Notes under the pieces: model-generated
What the model was told of the DNA's origin: nothing
Database searches by the model: none
What the model saw: only the letters and a program-made list of their open reading frames with translations
Assembly (NCBI GenBank): GCA_017484065.1
Contig: JAFUTX010000031.1
Location: forward strand, 34,581 to 98,580
Direction: 5' to 3'
From: Bacilli bacterium
Lineage (GTDB): Bacteria; Bacillota_I; Bacilli_A; RF39; UBA660
DNA length: 64,000 bases
Translations under genes and position numbers: made by a program
In this document: positions 15,033 through 54,799 of the stretch, one piece after another
Position numbering within the stretch: position 1 is the first letter of the stretch
Layout: every line of letters starts with the position of its first letter

Positions 15033-16052
15033 TTATTTACTAGTTTGTGATTGTAATTTAACGTTAGAAATATAATTAGAATATTGAGTATTTAATTCAG
15101 AATCATTTATTTCCATTCCTTGTTTATTACGATAATGTTGTAGGGCAGTTACGCTTAATGAACTATCATCAGTAATAGCTTTATTAGCTAAATCTTCAAT
15201 AATATCATCTTTAATATCTTCTAATTTATCTTTTTCTTTAGTTTTTTCTCTTAATATTACATGGTAACCTAATTCAGTTTTAATAACTTCAGATGAGTAT
15301 TCACCATCTTTTAATTTATAAGCAGCATCTAATAGATTTTTATAGTTATCATCTAAAATATCATAGTTGATATAATCCATGCTACCACCATCTTTTTTAG
15401 TAGCGTCATCTTGTGAATATTCTTTAGCTAAAGAAGTGAATGTTTCTTTAATATCTTTTCCTTCTTTTTTAGCTGTGTTTAACTTTTCAATAACTTCTTT
15501 AATTTTAGCTTCAGCAGCTTCTTCTTTCTTAGTCTTATCTTCATCTTTATCATCATCTTTAACATCTGGTGTAATTAAGATATGACTAACTAAAATATCA
15601 GGATATACATCATTTTCATAATATTTATTAATTTGATCTTCTGTTATAGTAGTTTTAGCATATGCTAAAATAGCTTTTTGTTTTAAATTATTTAAATATA
15701 AATAATCTTGGTAAGCTTCAATACTTGGCATTCCAGTATATTGTTGAATCATTGTTTGTAATTGATCTCCATAGCTTTCCTTCATAGTTTTAATTGTTGA
15801 TTCAGCATCTTTTTTAGCTTTTTCAACATCACTCTTAAATTCTTTTTCTAATACATGTTTATCAATTAAATTCATTAGAGTATTTAATCCATAAGTGTTT
15901 TTTATTTCTTCGTATAAGGTATCAACACTTATTTTATCTCCATTTTCAAATGATACTACTGCTTCGCTGCCATCTTTTAGTTTTGGTATTTCTTTACCGC
16001 AACCACATAATAATATACAACTTAATCCTAATAATACAATTTTCTTTTTCAT
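15033..16052 (-). CDS. prsA: PrsA-like foldase lipoprotein (parvulin-type PPIase domain)
   Basis: lipobox LLCGC; VSHILI...GYHVI parvulin motifs. Confidence 0.75.
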   Translation of the reverse strand: MKKKIVLLGLSCILLCGCGKEIPKLKDGSEAVVSFENGDKISVDTLYEEIKNTYGLNTLMNLIDKHVLEKEFKSDVEKAKKDAESTIKTMKESYGDQLQTMIQQYTGMPSIEAYQDYLYLNNLKQKAILAYAKTTITEDQINKYYENDVYPDILVSHILITPDVKDDDKDEDKTKKEEAAEAKIKEVIEKLNTAKKEGKDIKETFTSLAKEYSQDDATKKDGGSMDYINYDILDDNYKNLLDAAYKLKDGEYSSEVIKTELGYHVILREKTKEKDKLEDIKDDIIEDLANKAITDDSSLSVTALQHYRNKQGMEINDSELNTQYSNYISNVKLQSQTSK

Positions 16053-16139
16053 TTACGTTTAATCCTCCTTTAAACAACAATTATTATATCACAACTTTAA
16101 TTAAAAACAATAACAACCCTCACACTATTTGAAAAAAAC

Positions 16140-16148
16140 CATATTATA
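16140..16148 (+). promoter_or_regulatory. CATAnnnTA -10-like element (mother-cell sporulation sigma type) upstream of the yjcZ-like genes
   Basis: CATATTATA with AC about 16 bp upstream. Confidence 0.25.
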
Positions 16149-16181
16149 TAAGTGAAAAGACAAATAAAGGAGGAAAGATTT

Positions 16182-16283
16182 ATGAATAATTGTGGAAATA
16201 ATAACAATGGCTACGGATTTGGCCCTGCTATAATTTTAGTATTATTTATTCTTTTAATCATCATCGTAGGGGCTTTCATTTAG
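16182..16283 (+). CDS. YjcZ-like small hydrophobic sporulation peptide (33 aa)
   Basis: MNNCGNNNNGYGFGPAIILVLFILLIIIVGAFI; AAGGAGG 7 nt upstream; too short for the ORF track. Confidence 0.5.
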   Translation: MNNCGNNNNGYGFGPAIILVLFILLIIIVGAFI

Positions 16284-16312
16284 TCTTTTAATAAAAGTTT
16301 AAGGAGGTGTCT

Positions 16313-16426
16313 ATGAGCTGTTCATGTAAAAATAAAGGTAATAATAGTATCTCTTGCAATGCATTTATGATAATTATATTATATATATTATTAGCTATAA
16401 TACTTGGTGGAGTACTATTTTATTAA
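16313..16426 (+). CDS. second small hydrophobic peptide (37 aa), tandem to the first
   Basis: MSCSCKNKGNNSISCNAFMIIILYILLAIILGGVLFY; AAGGAGG 5 nt upstream. Confidence 0.45.
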   Translation: MSCSCKNKGNNSISCNAFMIIILYILLAIILGGVLFY

Positions 16427-16431
16427 ATAAC

Positions 16432-16460
16432 AAGAAGGAAAAGATAACCTTCTTTTTTTG
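16432..16460 (+). terminator. intrinsic terminator after the peptide pair
   Basis: AAGAAGG-aaaagataa-CCTTCTT plus TTTTTT. Confidence 0.6.
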
Positions 16461-16518
16461 TCGTTTTTTGTCGACTGCTTTTTCTTGGCTAAATGTTTTA
16501 CAAATGATAGTATTGATT

Positions 16519-16527
16519 GGGGGGGGG
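16519..16527 (+). repeat. G9 homopolymer in the abi ribosome-binding region
   Basis: 9 consecutive G ending 5 nt before the ATG at 16533. Confidence 0.7.
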
Positions 16528-16532
16528 TTATT

Positions 16533-17501
16533 ATGGTTGAATATAAAATATTAACTTCAGAAGAGTTAGTAAATCACTTAAAAGAAAAAAATATTAAATT
16601 TAATTATATTAGTGAAGAAGATGCTGTTAAATATTTAAAGAAAAATAATAGTTATTATAATTTAACATCTTATTTAAATAATTTTAAAAAATATCCATCT
16701 CCTGCTGGAAGATACGAAGGTATGTATATTGATTTAGATTTTGCTTACTTAAAAGATATGGCAATAGTAGATTATAGATTAAGGCTCATATTATTTAAAA
16801 TGACGACAGCAATAGAACATCATTTAAAATTAGAAATATTAAATAATATAAGTAAGTATAGTAATGATAATGGTTTATCATTAGTTAATAGTTATTTAGA
16901 AAAAGATTTTAATGATGAATTGTTTCCTAAAAAAATCCATCATAGTATTATAAGAAAAGTAGATAGTGATTATTATAAGAAACTATTTAACAATTATGAT
17001 ATAGACGGAGATAAAAAATTAGAAAATATACCACTATGGTTATTCTTAGAAGTTATAACATTTGGAGAATTAGTTAGATTTTATGAATATTATGCCCGTA
17101 CATATAGTTTAAAGAAAATAGTACATAATATTCATAATTTAAAAGATATAGTTAAATTAAGAAATGCTTGTGCACATAATACTAATATATTAAATGATTT
17201 AAATCAAAAAAATCATAATGTTAGTTTAAATTATGATATAACTCGCTTTTTAGAAAAATGCAATATTAATAAAAAAAGTAGACACAATAAAATGAGTAAT
17301 GCAAGAGTTAGACAAATAACTTGTACATTATTTGTATTTAATGAAATAGTCATTAGTGAAGGTGTTAGAAAAAGTGTTAAAAACGCTTTAAATAAATTCT
17401 TTTTTATAAGAATAAAAAGAAATAAAAAATACTATAATAATAATGAACTACTTATATCAGTATATAAATATTTTGAAAAAATAATTGGAAAAATATACTG
17501 A
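16533..17501 (+). CDS. Abi_2 (AbiD/AbiF-like) abortive-infection family protein
   Basis: Abi_2 family pattern; ATG at 16533 preferred over the longer track ORF starting 16458. Confidence 0.75.
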   Translation: MVEYKILTSEELVNHLKEKNIKFNYISEEDAVKYLKKNNSYYNLTSYLNNFKKYPSPAGRYEGMYIDLDFAYLKDMAIVDYRLRLILFKMTTAIEHHLKLEILNNISKYSNDNGLSLVNSYLEKDFNDELFPKKIHHSIIRKVDSDYYKKLFNNYDIDGDKKLENIPLWLFLEVITFGELVRFYEYYARTYSLKKIVHNIHNLKDIVKLRNACAHNTNILNDLNQKNHNVSLNYDITRFLEKCNINKKSRHNKMSNARVRQITCTLFVFNEIVISEGVRKSVKNALNKFFFIRIKRNKKYYNNNELLISVYKYFEKIIGKIY

Positions 17502-19404: not shown

Positions 19405-19935
19405 ATGGAATATACAATTAATGAATTTTGGTCAGATGGCTTTGATAAAATAGCTCCTAATAGTTTTAAATTAGTATTTAATATTAATAATGAAAGTATT
19501 AAGGGTAAATTTGTTGCATTAGAAAAAGACAATAATAACATAATAGAGAATGAGAATACAATAATGTTTGCAAATTTTAATTATACTAAACCTAATTTAG
19601 ATGCAGTATTGAGCATAGTTGAATCATTTTATTTAGCAAGTAATGATATAAGTGATTGTAAGGTATATCAATATAATGATAATAGAAAAAGTTTAAGTAG
19701 ATTAATAGTTAAGTTTGTTATTGATCAAAATGATTATGTGTTTTTTGAAATAGTAGGATTAACTACTTTAATAGAGCAATATAGAAATATAATAAATAAA
19801 ATATTAGATTTAAAAGATATGAAGTATAATTATAATATGTATAAGGAGTTACAAAATAAAACTAAAGCAGAATTAGTTGAAGAGTTAGATAAGAATGATT
19901 TAGTAGATGCAGTAATACTAAAAAGGACAAGATAA
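19405..19935 (+). CDS. hypothetical protein
   Basis: 176-aa ORF, RBS AAGGGTGG upstream. Confidence 0.45.
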   Translation: MEYTINEFWSDGFDKIAPNSFKLVFNINNESIKGKFVALEKDNNNIIENENTIMFANFNYTKPNLDAVLSIVESFYLASNDISDCKVYQYNDNRKSLSRLIVKFVIDQNDYVFFEIVGLTTLIEQYRNIINKILDLKDMKYNYNMYKELQNKTKAELVEELDKNDLVDAVILKRTR

Positions 19936-19950
19936 AAGGTGGGATACTTT

Positions 19951-21105
19951 ATGGTAAATAAAAATAAAGATAAAAATGAAATTAACAAAGGTGAAATTAA
20001 TGAGACAGTAGGGCTTTTAAAAAGAATATTAAAGCTCCTTTATATTGTAATGATAGTAGCAGGAATATTCATTATTACACTAATAGCACAAAAATGGGGG
20101 ATACTTGGTTTTATATTATCCTTATTAAAAGTTATGTCTCCATTATTTATTGGATTTGCAATAGCTTGGCTCTTTAATCCAGCAGTAGAAAAAATGGAAA
20201 GGAAAGGTTTGCCAAGATTTGCTGGTACAATGATAGTTTATTTAATACTAATTGTATTTTTAATAATATTCTTTAAACTATTTATACCAACTATGTATGA
20301 TCAAATAAATGAATTAATTAAATCAATACCTAATATTATTAAAAATTTAGAAGATATATTAGATAAAACTTTAACGAAAATGGAATCACCTAATATTGAT
20401 ATAAGTAGTATAAAGGATAACATTCTTAATACTTTAGGTACATTTACTACTAATTTCACTGGTACATTACCAGCAAAAATATTAGATATTATTTTAGGAT
20501 TAATATCTGGCTTGGGTACACTAGTATTTGGTCTTGTTGTAGGTTTATATATGCTATTGGATTTCGAAGCTATAAAGAAACAATTTGTTAAGTATATTCC
20601 AATAAAATATAGACATGAAGCTTCTACTTTAATTGGAAATATTGGTAGTGAAGTTAGAAAAAGTATCAATGGTACTTTATTAGTAGCATTTGCGGTATTT
20701 ATTGGAGATTTCTTAGGATTTGCTGTAGTAGGATTACAAGGAGCATTAATTTTTGCCTTATTCTGTGGATTAACAGATCTAATTCCATATATTGGACCTT
20801 ATATAGGAGGAGCAGCAGCTGTTGTGGTAGGATTTAGTACAAGTACTCCAACTGGTATAGCGGTACTTGCAATAGTAATAATAGTACAATTATTAGAAAA
20901 CTTTGTATTGCAACCAGTTATTATGAGCAAAACTATGAAATTAAATCCAGTAACTATTATTATAGGTTTGTTGATTTTTAACCATTTCTTTGGTATTGTA
21001 GGTATGATTTTAGCAACACCAACTATTGCATTATTAAAAGTTATATATGAATTTATAGCAATGAAATATAATTTCTTTGGTGAAAATGAATTAAAAGAAA
21101 GTTAA
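19951..21105 (+). CDS. AI-2E family transporter (PerM-like)
   Basis: 8 TM helices, YIGPYIGG motif; ATG at 19951 with AAAGGTGGG RBS preferred over GTG at 19939. Confidence 0.8.
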   Translation: MVNKNKDKNEINKGEINETVGLLKRILKLLYIVMIVAGIFIITLIAQKWGILGFILSLLKVMSPLFIGFAIAWLFNPAVEKMERKGLPRFAGTMIVYLILIVFLIIFFKLFIPTMYDQINELIKSIPNIIKNLEDILDKTLTKMESPNIDISSIKDNILNTLGTFTTNFTGTLPAKILDIILGLISGLGTLVFGLVVGLYMLLDFEAIKKQFVKYIPIKYRHEASTLIGNIGSEVRKSINGTLLVAFAVFIGDFLGFAVVGLQGALIFALFCGLTDLIPYIGPYIGGAAAVVVGFSTSTPTGIAVLAIVIIVQLLENFVLQPVIMSKTMKLNPVTIIIGLLIFNHFFGIVGMILATPTIALLKVIYEFIAMKYNFFGENELKES

Positions 21106-21106
21106 G

Positions 21107-21655
21107 GTGAATGATATGAAATTAATCTTGTTAGCAGGAAAAGCGAATTGTGGTAAAACTTCAATGGCTAATTTTATAAGAGAATATTACGTAACAAGAA
21201 GAGTTAATTGTGTTGCTACTGAAATGGGTAAATATTTAAAAATGTATGCTAGAGAATTAACTGATTGGGACGGGAACGAAGCAACTAAACCTAGAAAATA
21301 TTTACAAGATTTAGGTATGCTTATTCGTAAAGATATGAATAATCCATTATTTTTAATTAATCGTATTAAAGAAGATATTGAATTATATCGTAGAGATAAC
21401 GAAGTAATTATAATTAGTGATGTCCGTTTACCAGAAGAGATAGAAGAATTTAGAAATAGTTATGATGATGTTGTAACTATTAATGTAGTTAATCAATATG
21501 GTAACAATACTCTAACTATGGAAGAACAAACTCATTATACTGAATTAGCTTTAGAGAATTATAGTGATTATGATTATACAGTAATTAATGAAGATTTAAA
21601 AACTGCTAGAGAAAAGATACATGAAATTTTAGGGGAGTTAGAAAATGAACATTAA
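21107..21655 (+). CDS. P-loop NTPase, dNMP kinase-like
   Basis: Walker A LLAGKANCGKTS near the N-terminus. Confidence 0.5.
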   Translation: MNDMKLILLAGKANCGKTSMANFIREYYVTRRVNCVATEMGKYLKMYARELTDWDGNEATKPRKYLQDLGMLIRKDMNNPLFLINRIKEDIELYRRDNEVIIISDVRLPEEIEEFRNSYDDVVTINVVNQYGNNTLTMEEQTHYTELALENYSDYDYTVINEDLKTAREKIHEILGELENEH

Positions 21656-23396
21656 AGATAAATATATTAGTTTTTTTGAGAGTAAAGGTCATAAACATAT
21701 ACCTTCAGCACCTATAATACCGGAAAATGACCCAACTAGTTTATTTAATACTGCTGGAATGCAACCATTAGTTCCATATTTGACTGGTAAAGAACATCCA
21801 TTAGGTAAAAGATTAGTTGATTATCAAAAATGTGTTAGAACTAATGATTTAGATGAAGTAGGAGATACAACTCATCATACTTTTTTTGAAATGTTAGGTA
21901 ATTGGAGTTTAGGAGATTATTACAAAGAAGAATCAATTAAGATGAGTTTTGAATTCTTAACTAAAGAATTAAATATCCCATTAGAAAGATTAGCTGTAAC
22001 TGTATTTGCTGGTGATCAATTTATTCCAAGAGATGAGGAATCTGTTGGTATTTGGAAGAGTTTAGGAATAAGTGAAGAAAGAATTGTTTATTTATCAGAT
22101 AATTTTTGGATAGCGGGTAATAGTGGGCCATGTGGTAGTGATACCGAAATCTTTTATTGGCGTAGTGATAAAGAGATTCCACAAGTTTTTGATCCAGAAG
22201 ATGATACTTGGGTAGAGATATGGAATAATGTATTTATGGGCTATTTCAAAGATGAAGAAGGCAATATTACTGAGTTGCCTAAAAAGAATGTTGATACTGG
22301 TATGGGCTTAGAACGTATAGTAGCGGTATTAGAAGGAGTTAATGATAATTACGAATCAAGTATATGGCGACCAATTATTAAAAAAATTGAAGAAATAACT
22401 GGTTTAAGTTATAGTGATGATGAAAATAAAAAAGCTATTAGAATTATAGCTGATCATATTAGAGCTATTGTAATGATTAGTGGAGATAATGCTAATGTTA
22501 CTCCATCTAATACTGATCAAGGGTATATTTTAAGAAGATTAATTAGAAGAACTATTCGTTATGCTAAAAAGTTGAATATCAATATTGAAAGTGATTGGGA
22601 TAAAGAACTTGCTTTAATCGTTATAGATGAATATAGTAAATATTATCAAGAATTAGAAGCTAATAAAGATAAGATATTAACTGTCTTGGAACAAGAAAAA
22701 ATAAAATTTAATCGTACATTAGAAAAAGGATTAAAAGAATTTGAAAAAGTAGTTAATGCTATGGATGGAGATACTATTAATAAAGATAATGCTTTTAGAT
22801 TATATGATACTTTTGGATTTCCAATAGAACTTACTTGTGAACTGGCTAGTGAAAAAAGTTTAAAAGTAGATGTTGATGGATTTAAAGAAAAGTTTAAGGA
22901 ACATCAAGAAAAATCTAAAATGGGAGCAGATAAGAAATTTGCTGGAGGTTTATCAGGACATGGTGAAATAGAAACTAAATATCATACTGCTACTCATTTA
23001 CTTAATGCTGCTTTAAAAGTAATATTAAATAAAGATGTTCATCAAAAAGGAAGTAACATAACTCCAGAGAGAATGCGCTTTGATTTTTCATTTGATCGTA
23101 AGATGACTGATGAAGAGAAAAAAGCTACTGAAGATTTAGTAAATAAGTGGATTAATGAAGGGTTAGAAGTTAGTTGTTTAACTATGAGTAAACAAGAAGC
23201 GATTGATAGTGGAGCAGAATGTATGTTTATAGAAAAATATCCTGATACTGTAACTGTTTATAAAATTGGGGATGTATCTTTAGAAATATGTGGTGGACCA
23301 CATGTTACTAACACTAAAGAAATAGGTACATTTAAAATAAAAAAGGAAGAAGCTTCTTCCGCAGGTGTAAGAAGAATTAAAGCTATAATTGAATAA
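21645..23396 (+). CDS. alaS: alanine--tRNA ligase, unusually short (583 aa; no C-Ala domain, shortened middle region)
   Basis: class II AlaRS motifs (FESKGH..NDPTSLFNTAGMQ, HHTFFEMLGNWS, GPCGSDTEIFYW, GMGLERI) plus editing-site HTATHLL and CGGPH. Confidence 0.8.
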   Translation: MNIKDKYISFFESKGHKHIPSAPIIPENDPTSLFNTAGMQPLVPYLTGKEHPLGKRLVDYQKCVRTNDLDEVGDTTHHTFFEMLGNWSLGDYYKEESIKMSFEFLTKELNIPLERLAVTVFAGDQFIPRDEESVGIWKSLGISEERIVYLSDNFWIAGNSGPCGSDTEIFYWRSDKEIPQVFDPEDDTWVEIWNNVFMGYFKDEEGNITELPKKNVDTGMGLERIVAVLEGVNDNYESSIWRPIIKKIEEITGLSYSDDENKKAIRIIADHIRAIVMISGDNANVTPSNTDQGYILRRLIRRTIRYAKKLNINIESDWDKELALIVIDEYSKYYQELEANKDKILTVLEQEKIKFNRTLEKGLKEFEKVVNAMDGDTINKDNAFRLYDTFGFPIELTCELASEKSLKVDVDGFKEKFKEHQEKSKMGADKKFAGGLSGHGEIETKYHTATHLLNAALKVILNKDVHQKGSNITPERMRFDFSFDRKMTDEEKKATEDLVNKWINEGLEVSCLTMSKQEAIDSGAECMFIEKYPDTVTVYKIGDVSLEICGGPHVTNTKEIGTFKIKKEEASSAGVRRIKAIIE

Positions 23397-23515: not shown

Positions 23516-23992
23516 TCAATTTTTGATAGTAACACGTTTCTTAATTGTAAACATATCATCCACACGACAACAAACATAATCCATAGATACATTATATTTT
23601 TTACATATTTGATATGCAAAAGCAGTAAGTATACAAGTCTTACCAGTTTCATAAGCGGATATAGTAGATGAAGTAGTATTTAGTTCTTTAGCTAAACTTC
23701 TTAAGGAAAGATTAAAGTGCTCTCTGATTTTTTTTAATCTTAATCCTATCTCTTTTTTATTAATATTATCTTTTACTTTTAAGTTACGTGTACTATCACT
23801 TAATTTTAACATATAATCCATATCGACATTATAATAGTTACATAAAGTATTTAAATGGGTAAGAGGAATAATCTTGATTCCATTTTCCCATGCAGAATAA
23901 GCCGGCTGTGTTACTCCTAACATATTAGCAATGTATCTTTGACTTAAACCATTATAATCTCTTAAATAAAATAATCTATTGTACATAAGCAT
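23516..23992 (-). CDS. XRE family regulator with two HTH domains
   Basis: two Cro/C1-type HTH units; divergent from the paralog pair. Confidence 0.8.
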   Translation of the reverse strand: MLMYNRLFYLRDYNGLSQRYIANMLGVTQPAYSAWENGIKIIPLTHLNTLCNYYNVDMDYMLKLSDSTRNLKVKDNINKKEIGLRLKKIREHFNLSLRSLAKELNTTSSTISAYETGKTCILTAFAYQICKKYNVSMDYVCCRVDDMFTIKKRVTIKN

Positions 23993-24108
23993 ACACCATC
24001 TAAATTTTCCTATGTATATCTTAAAAATTATTAAAATATATAACCAAATACGAGCGACTTATGTTATAATGATTTTAGCATAGATAAAAATAGAAGTAGG
24101 AGGAGTAT

Positions 24109-25707
24109 ATGACAAATAAAAAGAAGATAATATCTTTAATACTTGTGTTGTGCTTATTAGTAGCACTAGGAGTAAGTTATGCTTTATGGACGACTAGTGA
24201 TAGCCAAAGTGATAATAATGAGTTAACTACAGATGATTGTATAGATATAGTATTTGAAGATAAAAGTAGTAATATAACATTAACAGATACAGTACCAGTA
24301 TTAGATAAGTTTGGTATGCAAAAGGCTGGTTATAGTTTTAAGATAACTAATAATTGTACTAAAAATGTCTCATATGATGTTAATTTAGAAAGTTTATCAA
24401 ATGTAGCAGAAGAAAATAGAACTAATTTAAATTATGTAAAGGTAGCATTAATAGAAAAGAGTAGTAATGAAACATATGCTTTTAATACATTAAATAATTT
24501 TGATACAACTAATAGTGTATTAGCTAGCGGTACTGCTTATGATACAAGAGTAATACTAAGAGATGTATTAAGGCCAAATAAATCAGTAGAATATACATTA
24601 AAGATGTGGATGGATGAGTCAACTCCTAATAGTGAACAAAATAAGACATATAATAGTCAAATTACTATATATGGAACACTAACTAATTCATATAATGCAG
24701 TAGAATATTTAACTGAATTAGCTAAGACTAATACAAATGAAATGTATTATGATGGAGCAAGTTATACTGATCCAGATACTAATGAATTAGTAGTAGATAA
24801 TAACCTAAGATATATGGGAGCTAATCCTAATAATTATGTCTGGTTTAATAATGAACCATGGCGAATAATAGGAGTGATGAACAATGTTAAAGGTTCATCT
24901 ACAGATGATGGTAGTGGTGAAACAAGAATTAAGTTGATTAGAGCAGAAAGTTTGGGAGAGTTTCCATACATTGATAGTTGTGCAGATGAATATTGGACAG
25001 ATAATGGTGATGGAACTTATACTTGTTCTTCTAAAAGATATAATAATAACTGGCCAAATAGTACAATAAATAGTTTATTAAATGATTTGTACTGGAATAG
25101 AAAAAATCATGAATCATATCATGGATGGGTTTTTAAAAATGGAACATGGCAAGATTATTTAACAGAAAAAATTGAATTTAAAAAGGATGGTTTAAGAACC
25201 AGTGATAAATCATTAATCGGAAATGCTGTATATTATTTGGGTGGCTACACAAAACAAAGCGAAAATAATTATTATGACTTAAATATGAATACTTCAAAAT
25301 GGTATGAAGCAGAACGAATAAATCAGGGAAATAATAACGAACTAACGTGGATAGGTAATTTGGGTTTAATGTATCCAAGTGATTATAGTTATGCTTCAAA
25401 ATATATATTATCTGATGATTGTAAAAATATCTCATTGTATTCTTGGGCTGAAAGTTTTAATAATAAATGTAAAAATAATGATTGGTTATATAATAGTGTG
25501 TTTTGGGAATGGACAATAACTCCGCGTGCTGATTCAAATGTAAGTTATGCTCATCAAAGCGGTGGCTACATCCGTAATAGTGATTATGGAACAATAGCCA
25601 GTTTTAGTATTCATCCTGTTTTATACCTAAAGAAAAATGTAGAAATGGCTAGTGGAGATGGGTCAAGAACAAATCCATATAGATTAACTATAGAGGAGGG
25701 AGTATAA
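24109..25707 (+). CDS. N-terminally anchored extracellular protein of unknown family (paralog 1, 532 aa)
   Basis: N-terminal TM/signal anchor; shared blocks DGASYTDPDT, NNYVWFNNE-WRIIGVMN, SSKRYNNNWPNST, NELTW-GNLGLMYPSDY, C-terminal NPYRL. Confidence 0.7.
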   Translation: MTNKKKIISLILVLCLLVALGVSYALWTTSDSQSDNNELTTDDCIDIVFEDKSSNITLTDTVPVLDKFGMQKAGYSFKITNNCTKNVSYDVNLESLSNVAEENRTNLNYVKVALIEKSSNETYAFNTLNNFDTTNSVLASGTAYDTRVILRDVLRPNKSVEYTLKMWMDESTPNSEQNKTYNSQITIYGTLTNSYNAVEYLTELAKTNTNEMYYDGASYTDPDTNELVVDNNLRYMGANPNNYVWFNNEPWRIIGVMNNVKGSSTDDGSGETRIKLIRAESLGEFPYIDSCADEYWTDNGDGTYTCSSKRYNNNWPNSTINSLLNDLYWNRKNHESYHGWVFKNGTWQDYLTEKIEFKKDGLRTSDKSLIGNAVYYLGGYTKQSENNYYDLNMNTSKWYEAERINQGNNNELTWIGNLGLMYPSDYSYASKYILSDDCKNISLYSWAESFNNKCKNNDWLYNSVFWEWTITPRADSNVSYAHQSGGYIRNSDYGTIASFSIHPVLYLKKNVEMASGDGSRTNPYRLTIEEGV

Positions 25708-27323
25708 TGAAAAATAAGAAAGTATTAGTAATAGTTATAGTTCTTCTTCTAGTAGTAGTTATTCTAGGTGCTTCATATGCTTTATGGACAACTACAGCAC
25801 ATCAAGATGGTAATAATAGTGCAGCGTTATCTTGTTTAGATATAACTTATGAAAGTATTAGTGAAAATAATATAGAATTAAATGAAGTTTTACCTATAAC
25901 AGATGAAGCAGGTTTAGCTTTAGAAGGATACACTTTTAAAATAACAAATAATTGTAATAGTATAGTAAGATATCAAGTTAATTTAGAAACATTAAATATA
26001 AGTAATGATACTAAGTATTTAAATATAGATTATTTAGATGCTACTATAGATAATGAGTTTATTGAAACATTAGGTAATTATGAAAGTACAACTACACTAC
26101 TAAGTGATAATGAAGCTAGAGATGCTAGAATAATAAAAGAAGGATTATTAGATAAAAGTAGTAATACATCTACTAATAGTGTAATTCATACTTTAAGAGT
26201 ATGGTTAGATAAAGATACTCCTACTAGTGAGAAGTATGCACAATGGAGAGGTAAGATAACTATAAATGCTACAACTCCAACAGAAGATATAATCTATGAT
26301 ACAGCAGCTAACTATTTAACAAATGTAGTAAAACCTACAACAGATGAACTTGTATATGATGGAGCAAGTTATACTGATCCAGATACAGGAGTAGAAATAG
26401 TAGATAATAACTTAAGATATGTTGGAGCCAATCCAGATAACTATGTTTGGTTTAATAATGAGTTATGGAGAATTATTGGTGTAATGAACCATGTAAAAGG
26501 TGGAGAGAATGCACCTAGTGAAGGAGAGACAAGACTTAAGTTAATAAGAGATGAAAGTTTGGGAAATTTTCCGTATTATGAAGATTGTTTAGAAGAAAAT
26601 ATGAATTATGACGCTCAAACTGATAAATGGACATGTTCAAGTAAAAGATACAATAATAATTGGCCAAATAGTACGGCTAATGAAATACTAAATGATTTGT
26701 ATTGGAATCGAAGGCCTCATGCTCCATATAATGGTTACATGTATTTAAAAACCGGCAATCAAACATCTTTTACATGGCAAGATTATAAAACTGAAGCTGT
26801 CGATTTTAGGAATAGTGGACTTAAGAAAGTTTATCAAAATATGATGGAAACTGCTACATATTATTTAGGCGGATATACTTGGGATAATGGTGGTACTTAT
26901 GATGGAGTAACAATGAATACTAAACAGTATTATACAGCTGAAAGAACAAATCAAGGAATTAATAACGAGTTAACGTGGGCAGGAAATTTAGGCTTAATGT
27001 ATCCAAGTGATTATGGCTATGCAAGCAGTGGTTCTGTATCAGGTAGTAGCTGTAGAAATATAGTCCTTAGTACATGGAGTCAGGCAGCAAATGCAAATTG
27101 CAGAAATAACAACTGGTTATTTAGCAGTGCATTCTGGCAATGGACAATGACTCTGCGTGTTGATTATACAATCAATGTGGCAGATGTGAGCATTAGTGGC
27201 AATGTTTCCCACGATAACACGCATATCGGTTTTGGCTTGCGCCCTGTAGCATACCTAAAATCACAAGTCAAAATAATTGGTGGTATAGGTTCTTCAGATA
27301 ACCCATATCGCTTAAGCTTATAA
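25707..27323 (+). CDS. N-terminally anchored extracellular protein of unknown family (paralog 2, 538 aa)
   Basis: same conserved blocks as paralog 1; start overlaps the stop of paralog 1. Confidence 0.7.
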   Translation: MKNKKVLVIVIVLLLVVVILGASYALWTTTAHQDGNNSAALSCLDITYESISENNIELNEVLPITDEAGLALEGYTFKITNNCNSIVRYQVNLETLNISNDTKYLNIDYLDATIDNEFIETLGNYESTTTLLSDNEARDARIIKEGLLDKSSNTSTNSVIHTLRVWLDKDTPTSEKYAQWRGKITINATTPTEDIIYDTAANYLTNVVKPTTDELVYDGASYTDPDTGVEIVDNNLRYVGANPDNYVWFNNELWRIIGVMNHVKGGENAPSEGETRLKLIRDESLGNFPYYEDCLEENMNYDAQTDKWTCSSKRYNNNWPNSTANEILNDLYWNRRPHAPYNGYMYLKTGNQTSFTWQDYKTEAVDFRNSGLKKVYQNMMETATYYLGGYTWDNGGTYDGVTMNTKQYYTAERTNQGINNELTWAGNLGLMYPSDYGYASSGSVSGSSCRNIVLSTWSQAANANCRNNNWLFSSAFWQWTMTLRVDYTINVADVSISGNVSHDNTHIGFGLRPVAYLKSQVKIIGGIGSSDNPYRLSL

Positions 27324-27335
27324 AAAATTCAATGA

Positions 27336-27365
27336 AAATTACTAAGAAATTAGTAATTTTTTTAT
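27336..27365 (+). terminator. intrinsic terminator after the paralog pair
   Basis: AAAATTACTAA-gaaa-TTAGTAATTTT plus T-run. Confidence 0.6.
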
Positions 27366-27368
27366 GCC

Positions 27369-27385
27369 TTCGACACCATTCGACA
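27369..27385 (+). promoter_or_regulatory. two TTCGACA (Spo0A-box-like) motifs 10 bp apart in the repeated YhcG leader
   Basis: TTCGACAccaTTCGACA; reverse complement is TGTCGAA. Confidence 0.35.
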
Positions 27386-27468
27386 AATTTTTGAAAGTAA
27401 TTGTGTTATAGTCTGATTAGAAAAGGGAAATAGTTGATTTACTAAACTATAGAAAAGAGGATAACACA

Positions 27469-27813
27469 ATGAATAAAGTAAAAAAATTAGATAAAAATGC
27501 AACACAAGATTTTAAAAATATAGTTAATAATATTAAAAATGAAATTAAAACAACTCAAATTAAAGTTGCAATAGAAGCAAATAAAAATTTAATTAATCTT
27601 TATTTTAGAATAGGAAAAATATTAAATGATAATTTTAAATATGGCAATAAATTTATAGATGATGTATCACGTGAAATAAAACTAGAATTCCCAAATATTG
27701 AAGGCTTCTCGGTTAGAAATCTCAAATATATGAAAAAATTTTATTTAGAATATAAAGATAATGAAGTTGTGCAACGCGTCGTTGCACAACTTCCGTGGAG
27801 ACAAATTATTTAA
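27469..27813 (+). pseudogene. YhcG/DUF1016-family nuclease, N-terminal fragment (copy A)
   Basis: LEFPNIEGFSVRNLKYMKKFY...QLPW motifs; ends after 114 aa. Confidence 0.55.
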
Positions 27814-27838
27814 GTCTTATATGTTATAGTGCTTTTAA

Positions 27839-27846
27839 GGGGGGGG
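27839..27846 (+). repeat. G8 homopolymer inside a repeated leader copy
   Basis: AAGGGGGGGGAAAA where the other leader copies have AAGGGAAA. Confidence 0.6.
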
Positions 27847-27889
27847 AAAATTAGTTGATTTACTAAAATATAGAAAAGAGGATAACACA

Positions 27890-28810
27890 ATGAATAAAAC
27901 TAAAGATTTAAAAGATGATTATTATAATGAAATTAAAGAAAAATTAATTGAAGATATAGCTTATAGTGCTGTAAAAGATATGTCTAAAGAAAGACATAGA
28001 GTAGCAACTTATTATGATGTTGGCAAAATATTAGCAGAAGCTGGTAAACATTATGGTGATGGTATCATTAAAGAATATTCTAACAAATTAAAAAATGAAC
28101 TTGGAAAAAAATACAACGAACGAACATTGAGAAGTATGCGTCAGCTATATTTATTTTTTGGAAAACAAAAATGGTCCCCAGTGGGGACCAAATTGTCAAT
28201 CAGTCATATTAGACTGTTATTTTGCTTTGATGATAACAATAAAGTAAATTATTATGCTGAACAAGTGGAAAAAAGAAGTCTTTCAAAAAGACAACTGGAA
28301 GAATTAATTAAATCTAAAGAATATGAAAGATTAGATGAAGAAGCTAAATTATAATTAATTAATAAAGAAGATACTGCAATTACTGATTTAATACCAAATC
28401 CTATTATTATTAAAAATACGGCTAATGTTAATGAAGATAATCTAAAAGAAAAAGTCCTTCAACAAATAATTATGGAAGATATTCCATCATTTTTAGAAAA
28501 TCTTGGTAATGGCTATACTTTTATTAAAAATGAGTACAAAATAAAGATAGGTGATCATTTTAATTACATTGATTTGTTACTGTACAATTATAAATGTAAT
28601 TCGTTTGTAGTTGTCGAGTTAAAGGTATCAGAATTAAAGAAAGAACATATAGGACAGATTCATGTATATATGAATTATATTGATGATAATGTAAAGACTA
28701 TAAATCAAAATGCAACTATTGGGATTATTTTAGTTAGAAAAAATAATGAGTTTATTATGGAATATTGTAGTGATGAAAGAATAAAAGCTCGTGAATATGA
28801 ATTAGTTTGA
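27890..28810 (+). pseudogene. YhcG/DUF1016-family PDDEXK nuclease interrupted by a single in-frame TAA at 28352-28354 (copy B)
   Basis: ORFs 27890-28354 and 28472-28810 share a frame; the only stop between them is the TAA; downstream part carries PDDEXK-like D..ELK (IDLLLYN...VVVELKVSELKKEHIGQ). Confidence 0.65.
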
Positions 28811-28821
28811 TTTTTTATCTG

Positions 28822-28838
28822 TTCGACACTATTCGACA
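28822..28838 (+). promoter_or_regulatory. two TTCGACA (Spo0A-box-like) motifs 10 bp apart, second leader copy
   Basis: TTCGACActaTTCGACA. Confidence 0.35.
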
Positions 28839-28921
28839 AATTTTTGAAAGCAGTTATGTTATAGTCTAATTAGAAAAGGGAAATAGTTGATTTACTAAAC
28901 TATAGAAAAGAGGATAACACA

Positions 28922-29518
28922 ATGAAGAAAACGAAAAACTTAAAAGATAATTATTATAATAAAATTAAAGAAAAATTAATTGAAGATATAGCTTATAGTG
29001 CTATAAAAGATATGTCTAAAGAAAGACATACAGTTCAAACTAATTATGAGGTAGGTAAAATACTAGCAGAAGCCGGTAAAAATTATGGGGAAAATATTAT
29101 AGGAAAATATGCTGAAAAATTAGTTGCTGAAGTCCATAAAAAATACCACGAGCGGACATTAAGAAGATATCGTCAATTCTATCTTACTTTTGAAAATCAA
29201 AAATGGTCGCAAGCGGCGACCATTTTGAACTGGTCTCATTACGTAGAACTTTTACCTTTAAAAAATAGTAATGCAATATTATATTATATAGAACAATGTA
29301 AACAATTACATTTAACTAGGAATAAATTAAGAAATAAAATTAAGTCAAAAGAGTATGAAAGATTAGATGATGAAACTAAATTAAAACTAATTAATAAAGA
29401 AGAAATTACTTTAAATGATTTAATTCCTAATCCTATTATTATAAAGGCTAGTAGTATAGAAGATAAGGAGCATATTAAAGAGTATATGTTAAAGAAAATA
29501 ATAATATTAAGAAATTAG
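28922..29518 (+). pseudogene. YhcG/DUF1016-family N-terminal domain fragment, no nuclease domain (copy C)
   Basis: 198 aa with DUF1016 N-domain motifs; ends before the PDDEXK region. Confidence 0.5.
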
Positions 29519-48983: not shown

Positions 48984-49013
48984 TATAGATAGTAGAATAT
49001 TGGGGTGAATCAT

Positions 49014-52000
49014 ATGAAGGTATTAATTATTAAAAATAATCAAATCATTAATTATGATTTGCCTTCTAAAATCTTTGGTAATTATTGGATTAAAGATACT
49101 GATTTAAATGGTAATGAAAGAAATCTAATAAATGTTGAAGAATATAATGGAAAATGGAAGATAAAAAGCAATAATGATTGTAAAATTATTTATAATAATA
49201 CTTATCAAGAAGCGGTTTATTTAGCTGAATATAGTTATTGTGAATTAGAAGTAAAAGGGGAAGTAGAACACTTTATACTTTATTGTTGTCCAGTTTATGA
49301 AAAATCTTATAATATTTATGCTATTAAAGGAACTAGAGTACTACTAGTAGGTAATGATTCATCTAACCATATTATTTATAAAAGTAATGATATAGCACGC
49401 CAACAAATAAAGTTAACAAGCAATAATGTTTTTTGGAACTTGCAAAATATTCAAGAGAATAGGAAAGTGTATGTTAATAACTTAGCAGTTACTAACAAAA
49501 ATCTAGTATATGGCGATATTATATTCTTAATGGGATTAAAAATAATTGTTTTAAACAATTATATATTAATAAATAATCCTAATAATTTAGTAGAGGTTAA
49601 TACTCAGAATCTTGAATTAATTAATTTAACAGAAGTTGAAGATAATCCTGAAGAAGATGATGATACATTAGAAGTTTATTCTAAAAATGATTATTATTAT
49701 CGTTCTCCTAGATTTAAAAGTAATATAGCTAAAGAAGATTTAACAATTGATCCTCCTCCTGGAGCTCAAAATAACAATCAACTACCTTTTTGGCTAGCTA
49801 TGGGTTCAATGATGGTTATGGGCATGCGTTCTGTATTTGGTTTGATGGATGTTATTAATAGTGTTAGTACTGGAAAAACTACTTGGGGCGACGCAATGCC
49901 TAGCTTACTTACTAATGGTTCAATGATTTTTGGGTCATTAATGATTCCAGTAATGACAAGAATGTATCAAAAAAAAGCAGCTAAAAAATACGAAAGAAAA
50001 AGACAAAAAAAATATAGTGATTATTTGGCAATGCAACGTAATGTTATTAGTAATATTATGAAAAAGCAAAAAGATATTTTACTTAATAATTATCCGTCAG
50101 TAGAAGAGTGCTATAACATAATAGTTAATCGTAAAAGAAATCTTTGGGAAAGAAAAATTGATAATGAAGACTTCTTAACATTGCGGGTAGGTTTAGGCAA
50201 TACTAAAGTAGAATTAGATTTAAAGTATCAAGAAAAGCATTTTTCGATGGATGAAGATAATTTACTTAATGATATGTATCGAATGACTGATGAATTACAA
50301 GAATTAAAAGATGTGCCAGTTACTATTTCTTTAACTGAAAAATTTGTATCAGCTATTCTTGGTAATAGCAACGTTATATCAAATTATTTAGAAACATTAA
50401 TTATTCAAATGATTACATATCATAGCTATGAAGATTTAAAAATAGTAGTTCTTACTGATGAAAAGAATGCTTATAAATATGAATACTTAAAAGTATTACC
50501 TCATTGTTGGAGTAATGATAAAAGCATTAGATTCTTTGGTACTAATAATGATGATATAAATAAAATATCAATGTATTTAATGAATGAATTTAAAGAACGT
50601 AAGTATCAAGATGAAGAAGAACAAAACTCTTCTAAAGAAGATGATTATAAGAGTTATTCACCGTACTACATGATTATTACAGATAATTTTGCTAATGCCA
50701 GAAAAGTAGAGATAATTAGAAATACTTTAGAACAAACAATTAATTATGGGTTTAGTTTGCTTATACTTGCTAATAGATTAAATGAGTTACCTAATGAATG
50801 TACGTCTTTCTTAAATATCGATACTAACATATCAGGTATGATTGAAAATGATTTATCATTAGAAAGTCAAAAGCCGTTTAAAGCTGATTTTAATAGTAAG
50901 GTAAATATTTATGAATGTGCTACTAGACTTGCTAATATACCAATAGAATTATCTAATGGTAGCTATGATTTACCTAATATGATTAGTTTTTTAGAAATGT
51001 ATAATGTTGGTAATGTTGATCAATTAAACTCTATGGAACGTTGGAAAAACAATAATCCTGTTGCATCTCTTCAAGTTCCAGTTGGAGTTAACGAAAGTGG
51101 CGATTTATTCAAACTAGATTTACATGAAAAAGCTCATGGCCCTCATGGTTTAATTGCAGGTACTACAGGTAGTGGTAAATCAGAATTTATTATTACTTAT
51201 ATTTTAAGCCTTGCTGTTAATTATCATCCTTATGAAGTTAGTTTTGTTTTAATTGACTACAAAGGTGGAGGATTAGCTGGGGCTTTTGAAAATAAAGATA
51301 CTGGTGTAAAATTACCACACTTAGCAGGTACAATTACTAACTTGGATATCACTGAGATTAATCGTTCGCTAGCTAGTATAGAAAGTGAACTTAAAAGACG
51401 TCAAAGAATATTTAATGAAGCTCGTGATAAACTAGAAGAAAGTACAATAGATATTTATAAATATCAAAGATATTATCGTGAAGGTTTAGTTACAGAACCA
51501 GTAAGTCATTTGTTTATTATAAGTGATGAGTTTGCTGAATTAAAAGCACAACAACCTGAGTTTATGGCACAACTTATACAAACAGCTCGTATTGGTCGTA
51601 GTTTAGGAGTACACTTAATTTTAGCAACACAAAAACCAAGTGGGGTTGTAGATGATCAAATATGGTCTAACTCTAAATTTAGAGTATGTTTAAAAGTTCA
51701 AGATAAATCAGATAGTAATGACATGATTAAATGCCCAGACGCAGCAAAACTATCAAATCCTGGTAGATTCTATTTACAAGTAGGATATAATGAGTTGTTT
51801 GCTTTAGGACAATCAGCATGGTGTGGAGCACCTTATTATGCAACTGATATGCGTAAAAAGACTATTGATGCTAATCTTAATTTCTTAGATACAGTTGGAG
51901 AAGTAGTAAAAAGTGTTGATCGTCAAAAAGGTGTAAACGCTGTAAAAGCAGATGGAGAAGAATTACCTCATATTGTCAAATATTTGACAAAGATAGCTAA

Positions 52001-53642: not shown

Positions 53643-53656
53643 TTAGTGAGGCGTTT

Positions 53657-53908
53657 ATGAATAAAGTACTAGTAGAATTATATGTTCCTAAAATAGAAAA
53701 AAAATATGAAATATTCTTACCAGTTTCTAAACAAGTAAGAACCGTAATTAGATTATTAGTTAAGTCTATAAACGAACTTACTAATCAAGAATTTCCTTTA
53801 GATTATAAAGCAATTCTATGTGATAAATTTACTGGAAATATATTTGATTTAAATAAAACTATTAAAGAATTAGGAATAATGAATGGAGCTAAATTAATAT
53901 TAATTTAG
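53657..53908 (+). CDS. esaB: EsaB/YukD ubiquitin-like T7SS protein
   Basis: 83 aa, YukD-like pattern ending GAKLILI, immediately downstream of essC. Confidence 0.75.
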   Translation: MNKVLVELYVPKIEKKYEIFLPVSKQVRTVIRLLVKSINELTNQEFPLDYKAILCDKFTGNIFDLNKTIKELGIMNGAKLILI

Positions 53909-53967
53909 TTCTTTTTTTATTGTTTTTGTAAGTTTTAAAGTTATAATTTGTACTGTTAGTTAAAAAA

Positions 53968-53996
53968 TTGACAAAATATAAATATTATGATAATAT
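53968..53996 (+). promoter_or_regulatory. TTGACA-17-TAATAT promoter for the candidate antisense RNA, copy 1
   Basis: identical element at 54362-54390 in copy 2. Confidence 0.4.
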
Positions 53997-54002
53997 GTAT
54001 TT

Positions 54003-54101
54003 ATCAAAGAAATTTGAATAAAATAAAAAGAGGAACATTCAATTTCGTACGTTGAATGTCTACCTCAATATATTGAGTTAGACATTTCAGTTCATATTTT
54101 T
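54003..54101 (+). ncRNA. candidate cis-antisense antitoxin sRNA, copy 1, convergent with the toxin gene
   Basis: hairpins ACATTCAA..TTGAATGT and AATGTCTA-cCTCAATATATTGAGt-TAGACATT followed by a T-run; co-varying stems in copy 2. Confidence 0.3.
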
Positions 54102-54118
54102 AAATATGTTCTGAAGTG

Positions 54119-54232
54119 TCATTTTTTTATACTAATAATTATTAGTAATATTACAAAACCTAAGAAGGCTAAATGTAACACAAGGACAGAAAACTTAGAG
54201 ATAAGCTTTAAAATGAAAGATTTTGTTTTCAT
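54119..54232 (-). CDS. 37-aa hydrophobic type I toxin-like peptide (MKTKSFILKLISKFSVLVLHLAFLGFVILLIIISIKK)
   Basis: hand-translated from the minus strand; SD GGAAGGA lies inside hairpin ATCCTT-aatgg-AAGGAT; single TM then a KK tail; paralog in copy 2. Confidence 0.55.
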   Translation of the reverse strand: MKTKSFILKLISKFSVLVLHLAFLGFVILLIIISIKK

Positions 54233-54296
54233 TCAATAAACATCCTTCCATTAAGGATAAGAGGTAGACACCAACAACTGAATGATCCATATTGAC

Positions 54297-54325
54297 ATTA
54301 TATCAACTTCTATGATATTTATCAA
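54297..54325 (-). promoter_or_regulatory. minus-strand TTGATA-17-TATAAT promoter for the toxin mRNA, copy 1
   Basis: reverse complement of 54297-54325; conserved as 54679-54707 in copy 2. Confidence 0.45.
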
Positions 54326-54361
54326 TAACAAATATTACAAAATGTAATACTTGTTGGAAAA

Positions 54362-54390
54362 TTGACAAAATATAAATATTATGATAATAT
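54362..54390 (+). promoter_or_regulatory. TTGACA-17-TAATAT promoter for the candidate antisense RNA, copy 2
   Basis: identical to the copy 1 element. Confidence 0.4.
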
Positions 54391-54503
54391 GTATTTATCA
54401 AAGAAATTTGAATAAAATTAAAAAAGGAAGTATTCAGTATTCGTGTGCTGAATGCCTACCCTAATTAATGGTGCGACATTTAAGTCAAATACTTAAGTGC
54501 CTT

Positions 54504-54611
54504 TTATTTTGCTAAAAATATTAGCAGTATTACTAAGCCTAATAAGGCTAAATGTAATATTAGAGAGGAAACTAGCGAAATAAGTTTTAAAATAAAATTT
54601 GTTAGTTTCAT
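54504..54611 (-). CDS. 35-aa hydrophobic type I toxin-like peptide (MKLTNFILKLISLVSSLILHLALLGLVILLIFLAK)
   Basis: hand-translated; SD GAAAGGAAGGG lies inside perfect hairpin CCTTTCAT-tctag-ATGAAAGG; conservative substitutions relative to copy 1. Confidence 0.55.
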   Translation of the reverse strand: MKLTNFILKLISLVSSLILHLALLGLVILLIFLAK

Positions 54612-54678
54612 CTTAAACCCTTCCTTTCATCTAGAATGAAAGGGTAGACACTCAGCTACTAAATAATTCCATGTTGAC

Positions 54679-54707
54679 ATTATATCAATTTTTATGATGT
54701 TTATCAA
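54679..54707 (-). promoter_or_regulatory. minus-strand TTGATA-17-TATAAT promoter for the toxin mRNA, copy 2
   Basis: reverse complement gives TTGATA aacatcataaaaattga TATAAT. Confidence 0.45.
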
Positions 54708-54799
54708 CAGTAAATGTTGCAAAATGTAATACTTTTTAACCTTTACTTTTAGTATTTTAAGTGATAAAATACACTTAATTGATGAAGAAATTATCTAAG

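Follow-up and report, generated by a model that had tools for sequence, protein, structure and literature searches.

A tandem pair of paralogous, predicted exported proteins with a DUF6273-like head beside a divergent XRE regulator gene in a gut Bacilli genome

Introduction

A 64-kb stretch of DNA from a Bacilli bacterium (contig JAFUTX010000031.1; the whole stretch is called the window here) contains two adjacent and similar genes, A and B, next to a divergently transcribed gene for an XRE-family regulator. The question raised by this locus is what the two proteins are. A prediction made earlier from the DNA letters (the original prediction) described them as tandem paralogous, membrane-anchored extracellular proteins that could not be placed in a known family, and proposed the pair as a candidate novel surface or secreted factor. 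Here, we followed up this prediction with sequence, structure and genome-context searches. On balance, and by a modest preference, we regard A and B as exported ligand-binding proteins, each made of a jelly-roll stalk and a DUF6273/lectin-like head, which were diversified as paralogs and are placed under the control of the XRE protein.

Results

Structure and paralogy of the gene pair

The two genes are arranged as follows.

24109-25707, plus strand: gene A, 532 residues, MBR1414104.1 (IJ574_05510)
25707-27323, plus strand: gene B, 538 residues, MBR1414105.1 (IJ574_05515), an exact match to family member P0003

Both products are labelled 'hypothetical protein [Bacilli bacterium]' in GenBank and derive from a metagenome-assembled genome (MAG). 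The TAA stop codon of A (25705-25707) and the ATG start codon of B (25707-25709) have one base in common, as had been noted for position 25707, and a Shine-Dalgarno sequence, GAGGAGGGAG, lies a few bases 5' of the start of B. Because of this overlap and the Shine-Dalgarno sequence, A and B very probably form a two-gene operon, in which they are co-transcribed and translationally coupled. The GC content is about 26-28% across the region, without any compositional island.

A BLASTP comparison of A with B gave a full-length alignment with 47% identity and 64% positives (E 1e-151). Both open reading frames (ORFs) and their tandem paralogy were therefore confirmed, and all of the collinear blocks named in the original prediction were present in the alignment. 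The mature parts of A and B contain six cysteines each, and these correspond in position (44, 83, 291, 306, 438 and 454 in A; 43, 83, 294, 310, 449 and 465 in B). Among 89 family members, C44 and C83 were conserved in at least 90% and C438 and C454 were invariant, so the conserved Cys pairs had been recognized correctly. No match to A or B was obtained in sequence searches of Pfam, NCBIfam, PHROGs or the PDB (the best PHROG for B had a non-significant E of 0.036, and A had none). An LPXTG-like motif ([LS]P.[TSA]G) is absent from both proteins, which end in ...NPYRLTIEEGV and ...NPYRLSL, and so is the prepilin G-F-x-x-x-E cleavage/methylation motif.

Fold of the C-terminal domain

The structure of A was modelled with AlphaFold2 on 89 homologs, and the model was confident (predicted local distance difference test, pLDDT, 85.4; predicted template modelling score 0.82). 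It consists of a helix (residues 4-22), a low-confidence stretch (19-41), a beta-sandwich (45-192), a short helix and a large alpha/beta domain (212-528). Gene B has the same architecture, with the N-domain at about residues 43-196 and the C-domain at about residues 212-538. The head corresponds to the following segment.

24742-25692, plus strand: C-terminal DUF6273-like/C-type-lectin-like domain of A, about 320 residues (212-528), recognized from fold matches and from PF19789 in relatives

The best match of A among solved structures was the IgA peptidase of Thomasclavelia ramosa (9QA6; E 7.3e-6, prob 1.0, 331 columns). The N-terminal 291 residues of this enzyme are annotated as DUF6273 (PMC12402451) and form a decorated C-type lectin-like core of twice the usual size (PMC12237041). 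Among predicted viral structures, gut-phage proteins named 'DUF6273 domain-containing' were among the best matches (A0A8S5VBN9, prob 1.0, 297 columns). Judged by its likeness to solved and predicted DUF6273 domains, the modelled C-domain of A appears to have a C-type-lectin-like fold.

The same relationship was found through the relatives of A and B. The gathering score of the Pfam model PF19789 is 23.5 bits, and it was exceeded by P0027 (35.2 bits), P0029 (32.4), P0041 (30.1), P0005 (28.2), P0058 (26.0) and P0022 (23.9). The full-length PF19789 matches in P0022 and P0027 map within the module that is homologous to residues 229-526 of A, and 17 of the 89 aligned members matched PF19789 at E<=0.1. 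These data suggest that the C-domain of A and B is, at least partly, a divergent and enlarged DUF6273 domain, whose membership is transitive and holds at superfamily level. Since the PF19789 model has only 172 positions, the A/B subfamily would carry about 150 residues of insertions. The view that the proteins belong to no known family thus held for A and B themselves, which match no curated family, but not for their C-domain, which can be placed at superfamily level as divergent DUF6273/C-type-lectin-like. Clear homology to a well-characterized enzyme or adhesin family was not found, as DUF6273 itself is without known function.

A lectin-like fold does not by itself imply binding, and we considered whether the C-domain is an enzyme of lectin-like or FGE-like fold, for instance one that modifies or hydrolyses a substrate outside the cell. 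The invariant residues R234, R252, K275, E402, S424 and D425, together with the invariant C438/C454 pair, would suit an active site, and one relative (L074) gave a borderline match to the FGE-sulfatase family (23.1 bits against a cutoff of 23.3), which is likewise of lectin-like fold. However, no enzyme family was matched by sequence or by fold. An HExxH at A334, which could have marked A as a metalloprotease, is not kept in B and was rejected as a chance occurrence. At least 15 diverged paralogs per small genome, tandem modules and fusions to pilin and dockerin sequences, all described below, are unusual for enzymes, and no catalytic activity of a DUF6273 domain is reported in PMC10743442, bioRxiv 10.1101/2024.10.15.618418 or PMC12237041. 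We therefore find an enzymatic role improbable.

Sequence variability of the head

The variability of the family is concentrated near the C-terminal end of the head.

25579-25608, plus strand: most variable segment of A (residues 491-500), preceding a conserved '[RH]-P-V-x-Y-L-K' strand

Residues 491-500 had the highest mean column entropy of any 10-residue block, 3.21 bits, as against 0.24 bits for the conserved YPSDYxYA block. In phage DUF6273 receptor-binding proteins, the variable region of the diversity-generating retroelement (DGR) is located at the C-terminus of the domain (bioRxiv 10.1101/2024.10.15.618418; PMC10743442). The possibility that A and B are themselves DGR targets was rejected: neither a template/variable repeat pair nor a reverse transcriptase signature was found in the window. 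Within the window, the A/B coding sequence is repeated only in the matches between the two paralogs (74-78% identity), and the window ORFs contained no reverse-transcriptase-like YxDD context.

Family size, distribution and modularity

A profile search of 1.84 billion representatives, clustered at 50% identity, returned 15,290 family clusters at E<=1e-3, of which 3,601 reached E<=1e-30. By these sequence matches, A and B belong to a very large, unnamed and uncharacterized subfamily. The same organism encodes at least 15 paralogs (14 named IJ574 among the best 120 matches, plus A), which are roughly equidistant from one another at 35-48% identity, and about 19 family ORFs were found in one rabbit-gut MAG. 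The idea of the pair as an isolated novelty consequently had to be dropped, given more than 15,000 clusters and this number of paralogs.

The distribution of homologs, which the original prediction had proposed as a check, was established among GTDB species representatives, where the more than 580 confirmed loci all lie in uncultured gut MAGs of Bacilli and 'Tenericutes' type. The carriers are named 'Bacilli', 'Tenericutes', Mycoplasma sp. CAG:956, Clostridium sp. CAG:451 and Ca. Ventrenecus, and their hosts include human, mouse, rabbit and chicken among other guts.

The head occurs in several settings besides the A/B architecture. Tandem copies are found in relatives, with up to seven matched stretches in P0121, a protein of 2,446 residues. 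One locus of the same organism, L003, encodes a Tad/type IV pilus, and there the C-domain is fused to prepilin-type N-termini; the first of these proteins matched TIGR02532 with 27.1 bits (cutoff 16.3), while in the second and in P0150 the prepilin motif was found by motif alone. Further combinations, with Flg_new and PKD repeats, occur in relatives. The C-domain thus behaves as a mobile display module, present in tandem copies and in pilin, dockerin and repeat fusions.

The dockerin fusion is P0098 (IJ574_02045) of the same organism, in which a type I dockerin (PF00404, E 1.7e-16, residues 201-255) lies between the N- and C-domain. The organism may thus use cohesin-dockerin display. The pilus locus L003 (15131-21533) contains TadE, a CbiA/ParA-type ATPase, T2SSE and T2SSF, and its prepilin-type proteins with the A/B-like C-module are encoded at 15860-17374 (504 residues) and 19492-20904 (470 residues). 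Three tandem family paralogs of 790, 512 and 510 residues are located just upstream, beside glycosyltransferase/Wzy genes. When 710 neighbouring ORFs were clustered, no recurrent partner or secretion gene was evident and no neighbour family appeared in more than eight loci; the neighbour families that do recur are mobile-element-like or housekeeping.

A module of this kind could also face inwards. According to such an explanation, the C-domain does not bind an external ligand but anchors the protein by binding the envelope polymer of the producer's own cell, which has no sortase, and the N-domain or the whole assembly is a structural component of the envelope. The strong conservation of the polar core, with 0.24 bits in the YPSDYGYA block, fits one common ligand. 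The C-module is repeated in tandem, as is typical of wall-binding repeats. A and B are without the LPXTG motif, and the related orders RFN20 and ML615J-28 were reported to be without srtA/B sortases (PMC10868615). On the other hand, the module stands at the distal end of type IV pilin-like proteins and, in another protein, follows a dockerin, which suits an outward-facing binder, and it is related to receptor-binding proteins of phages. Family members are also present in MAGs with the label Tenericutes or Mycoplasma, and some related lineages are predicted to have no peptidoglycan (PMC10868615). We judged this self-anchoring role to be unlikely.

Leader sequence and membrane attachment

The N-terminal part of A consists of the following two segments.

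24127-24189, plus strand: hydrophobic helix (residues 7-22; helix 4-22 in the model) and the conserved motif S-Y-A-L-W (residues 23-27)
24238-24684, plus strand: jelly-roll beta-sandwich (residues 44-192) with the Cys44/Cys83 pair, strands at 45-192, pLDDT about 90

Both A and B begin with a K-rich stretch, followed by about 16-17 hydrophobic residues and then by G-[VA]-S-Y-A-L-W-T-T. The motif, which can be written [ST]-Y-A-x-[WF], is strongly conserved among the non-gap sequences of the alignment (S/T23 in 85/85, Y24 in 80/85, A25 in 81/85 and W/F27 in 83/85), and 218 of the 256 family representatives have a motif of this type. A spacer of fixed length (14-15 residues) with conserved Q33 and N37 separates it from Cys44. 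In the model of A, residues 19-41 have a pLDDT below 50. Among the ORFs of the loci examined, the motif was carried by 87 of 120 family members and by none of the 912 non-family neighbours; a role as a general sorting signal, used outside the family, thus found no support in these loci. It also heads paralogs that have no N-domain (P0014, P0016 and P0018), which means that it belongs to the anchor or signal and not to the sandwich.

The leader of A and B would be of the Sec type, and it is either a cleaved signal peptide or a retained type II anchor. The sequence S-Y-A|L is compatible with a signal peptidase I site. The uncharged stretch of the leader is about 23-29 residues long, and the short paralogs P0014, P0016 and P0018 have a strongly basic cytoplasmic tail of 18 residues before the helix; these two features favour the type II anchor. 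The 'signal anchor' of the original prediction was thus supported as a hydrophobic leader for export or membrane anchoring, with a cleavable signal peptide as the alternative to an anchor.

The N-terminal domain and comparison with TasA

A separate structure model of the N-domain reached a pLDDT of 84.7. Foldseek gave only generic jelly-roll, carbohydrate-binding module (CBM) and pilin-like matches at E of about 1e-3, including birnavirus VP2, CBM3a, CBM35, CBM27, Pgp3 and archaeal fibre subunits. The domain belongs to no sequence family in Pfam or NCBIfam, and its family profile found nothing among PDB sequences. It is also paired with other C-terminal regions of no assigned family, in proteins of about 660 residues.

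The combination of leader and jelly-roll is reminiscent of TasA/camelysin-like fibres. In this case, a SipW-type leader would be followed by a donor strand, the jelly-rolls would polymerize and the lectin-like heads would decorate the fibre. The sequences G-x-S-Y-A-L-W-T-T and N-x-V-x-S-G-C-F-N-I of A and B resemble G-G-T-W-A-A-F-N-D and A-T-F-A-S-G-T-L-D-L of TasA. Residues 28-261 of the TasA sequence used here were confirmed by 8AUR; they contain the whole second motif and, of the first, the final A-F-N-D. The rest of the leader motif is presumably as given, in keeping with the invariant columns of the TasA-family alignment. A donor strand would also agree with the fixed spacing between the leader motif and Cys44, with the conserved Q33 and N37, and with the low pLDDT of residues 19-41. 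Donor-strand fibre subunits were among the fold matches of the N-domain (AbpA 7UEG, E 1.8e-3; the Sulfolobus 0406 filament 7PNB; CanA 9HDI), and in the hhalign alignment the first three strands fall where they would be expected.

The probability of this hhalign match was, however, only 2.4% over 48 columns when 51 family N-regions were compared with 37 PF12389 (TasA/CalY) proteins, and 1.4% against a single TasA sequence. PF12389 and TIGR04088 matched neither A and B, nor their first 200 residues, nor the leaders of 42-43 residues, nor ten motif-variant relatives (E<=1-10). TasA itself (5OF1, 8AUR) was outside the top 50 fold matches of the N-domain, and viral jelly rolls and CBMs were found at similar E. 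The SGSM[EQ]P motif of the ER/archaeal-type signal peptidase is absent from the window and from 82 loci, and the leader motif is present on the paralogs without an N-domain. A TasA/SipW identity of the N-terminus was set aside as improbable, since hidden Markov models, fold search, hhalign and the search for the SipW-type motif near family genes gave no support, and a fibre of this type is in our opinion a long shot.

XRE regulator and intergenic region

Upstream of A, the following features were identified.

23516-23992, minus strand: gene for an XRE-family regulator with two HTH_3 domains (Pfam), divergent from gene A
23993-24108, no strand assigned: divergent intergenic region of 116 bp with a candidate extended -10 element and a Shine-Dalgarno sequence

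The XRE protein matched HTH_3 in two stretches (E 2.2e-26; 92.1 bits against a cutoff of 23), and also HTH_19 and HTH_31; it is therefore a protein with two helix-turn-helix (HTH) domains, as predicted. The Shine-Dalgarno sequence GGAGG of gene A is located at 24099-24103. A candidate extended -10 element, TGTTATAAT, was found at 24062-24070, and TGTTACAAT stands at the aligned position in locus L001 of the same organism. From its letters and position, an extended -10 function of TGTTATAAT is plausible. A promoter scan of the intergenic region gave no result above shuffle expectation.

In L001, a double-HTH XRE protein of 145 residues is encoded about 105 bp from a divergent tandem pair (P0001/P0008), and it is 37% identical to the XRE protein of the window (E 1e-21). 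A single-HTH version precedes a tandem pair in locus L029 of a mouse-gut MAG. This layout has persisted although identity between the proteins has fallen to 37-48%, and the XRE gene and the pair are therefore probably linked in function. The regulator had been described as dedicated to the pair; the recurrence of the layout in L001 and L029 speaks for such a link, but it is not a family-wide arrangement. The cassette of L001 (8136-16505) is flanked by genes for Bro-N, ORF6N and two KilA-N proteins (phage-associated, DNA-binding/antirepressor-like), and the sporulation genes spoVA and yunB are located upstream of it.

The XRE protein also matches PHROG families of transcriptional regulators and repressors (phrog_8, E 6.9e-31). 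It could accordingly be asked whether the XRE-A-B cassette was left behind by a prophage or another mobile element, so that A and B would derive from phage proteins for receptor binding or superinfection exclusion and would be controlled by a repressor of phage type. Besides the repressor matches, the phage-associated genes around the L001 cassette, the degraded copies of a DUF1016/YhcG nuclease gene that follow the cassette in the window, and the frequent occurrence of DUF6273 in receptor-binding proteins of gut phages (PMC10743442; bioRxiv 10.1101/2024.10.15.618418) are consistent with this origin. A and B themselves speak against it, as a tblastn search of 50,697 phage records returned nothing for A and neither protein had a significant PHROG match; on these grounds phage origin was rejected as the main explanation. 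Moreover, no phage structural, integrase or reverse transcriptase genes are found beside the cassette, its neighbours are housekeeping and sporulation genes (an alaS-like gene, spoIIGA and sigE), the GC content is uniform, and most family loci lie among housekeeping genes without a recurrent neighbour. We consider a prophage remnant very unlikely.

Discussion

Proposed function of the pair

In the mechanism that we infer for exported, ligand-binding A and B, both proteins would leave the cell through the Sec pathway and would then either remain attached by the N-terminal helix or be set free. The disulfide-containing jelly-roll domain would serve as a stalk or spacer. The head of about 320 residues would be the working part, in which a conserved core carries variable loops for ligand binding. 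Diverged paralogs could supply differing specificities, with glycans of the host or its diet, mucus, other cells and phages as examples of possible targets. The divergent double-HTH XRE protein probably represses or switches the operon in two cassettes of the organism. The analysis established the gene structure, paralogy, domain architecture, fold relationship and family size, as well as the modularity of the head and where its variable loop lies; export and topology, binding with its ligand, and control by the XRE protein are deduced from these.

A number of observations weigh against this explanation. A and B fall below PF19789 (no match at E<=1 or E<=0.1) and match no NCBIfam or PHROG model, and the family profiles of the C-domain and the N-domain match nothing among PDB sequences. 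The template modelling scores of the 9QA6 match are low (0.30 and 0.20), and the aligned residues were not given by the fold search. Catalysis by the IgA peptidase does not require the corresponding domain, which has no known function (PMC12237041), and there is no demonstrated ligand for any DUF6273 domain. The polar residues R234, N242, Y243, R252, K275, Y399, E402, Y422, S424 and D425 are invariant among the 89 members and could form a single conserved ligand or catalytic site rather than serve diversified binding. If cleaved, A and B would simply be released, as they have no wall-anchoring motif. As for regulation, the XRE-pair layout occurs in only 3 of about 81 loci, and no operator was found: the three XRE-linked intergenic regions have no convincing shared palindrome or box beyond a -10-like TGTTA[TC]AAT.

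Significance of the family

The orders RFN20 and ML615J-28, for which the absence of sortases was reported, have therefore been assumed to be poor in surface proteins (PMC10868615). A sortase-independent family of lectin-like proteins would revise this assumption. We also entertain, as a doubtful possibility, a broader proposal in which sortase-poor gut Bacilli with small genomes (RFN20/RF39-like) have this family as their main repertoire of variable surface proteins. It would be attached through a novel [ST]-Y-A-x-[WF] anchor or sorting signal, its DUF6273 heads would have been duplicated and diversified at the same loop as in phage DGR targets, and XRE proteins would act as on/off switches in some cassettes. 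In a still bolder form, the jelly-roll stalks may polymerize like TasA.

Large paralogous families of surface proteins are to be expected in host-associated bacteria. The carriers of this family are uncultured, abundant in animal and human guts, and devote a notable share of the coding capacity of very small genomes to it. Its members would be concrete candidates for the proteins by which these bacteria attach to hosts, food particles or other microbes. In addition, the family ties cellular proteins to the DUF6273 fold of DGR-diversified gut phages and of the T. ramosa IgA protease, and a ligand for any one of these DUF6273 groups would inform all three.

Other features of the window

Several other features of the window were recorded.

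21645-23396: ORF of 583 residues directly upstream of the cassette, with an alanyl-tRNA synthetase-like start but much shorter than the full enzyme
27358-29518: two to three tandem degraded DUF1016_N/YhcG_C (PDDEXK nuclease) copies between gene B and spoIIGA/sigE
49005-53908: ORF of 1,545 residues followed by an ORF of 83 residues
53941-54737: duplicated unit of about 385-395 bp with 86-88% identity

A neighbour similar to the first ORF, also of 583 residues in median length, was present in four other family loci. The DUF1016_N/YhcG_C copies consist of ORFs 27469-27813, 27890-28354, 28472-28810 and 28922-29518, have inter-copy repeats with 82-88% identity, and look like frameshifted or truncated pseudogenes. 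The layout of 49005-53908 suggests a candidate type VII secretion EssC-like ATPase with a YukD/EsaB-like small protein. Each copy of the unit at 53941-54737 has a near-consensus promoter, TTGACAAAATATAAATATTATGATAATATG, and small hydrophobic peptide ORFs lie on the opposite strand at 54119-54232 (37 residues) and 54504-54611 (35 residues). This duplication had no match in Rfam, and it resembles tandem type I toxin-antitoxin loci in its arrangement.

Comparison with known systems

A and B were finally compared with four known systems. With TasA, CalY and camelysin, they have in common a leader of the form small-aromatic-Ala-x-aromatic, followed by a first strand of the form N-x-hydrophobic-x-small-G-x-hydrophobic, and a jelly-roll domain with an 'F-x-I-x-N-x-[GC]' strand, which is found in the A/B family too. 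Unlike these proteins, A and B carry a large additional head domain.

The variable surface proteins of mycoplasmas are multigene families of host-associated Bacilli with reduced genomes. They are similar to the A/B family in the many diverged paralogs per small genome, in the attachment by the N-terminus to the membrane, instead of sortase anchoring, that is predicted for A and B, and in their carriers, as those of the A/B family are host-associated lineages related to Mycoplasmatales. A and B differ from them in the absence of a lipobox cysteine (S-Y-A-L-W instead of L-x-x-C); no repeats or phase-variation tracts were seen for the pair, and there is no sequence relationship.

The DGR-diversified proteins of gut phages (tentaclins and Mtd-like DUF6273 proteins) have the DUF6273/C-type-lectin-like fold in common with A and B, and in both cases variability peaks at the C-terminal end of the domain. 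The source of the diversity is different: it arises by DGR in the phage proteins, whereas in the A/B family it comes from gene duplication and divergence, with paralogs that are 35-48% identical.

The closest solved relative, and the only solved example of PF19789/DUF6273, is found at the N-terminus of the T. ramosa IgA peptidase. This domain is comparable in size (291 residues, about 320 in A and B), has a lectin-like core with extra decorations, is extracellular, as is predicted for A and B, and, like them, comes from gut Bacillota. It has a structural Zn site and no tethering disulfides (PMC12237041), whereas the A/B family has an invariant Cys pair. In the IgA peptidase it is an accessory domain of a protease, whereas in A and B the DUF6273-like domain forms the C-terminal head of a two-domain protein.

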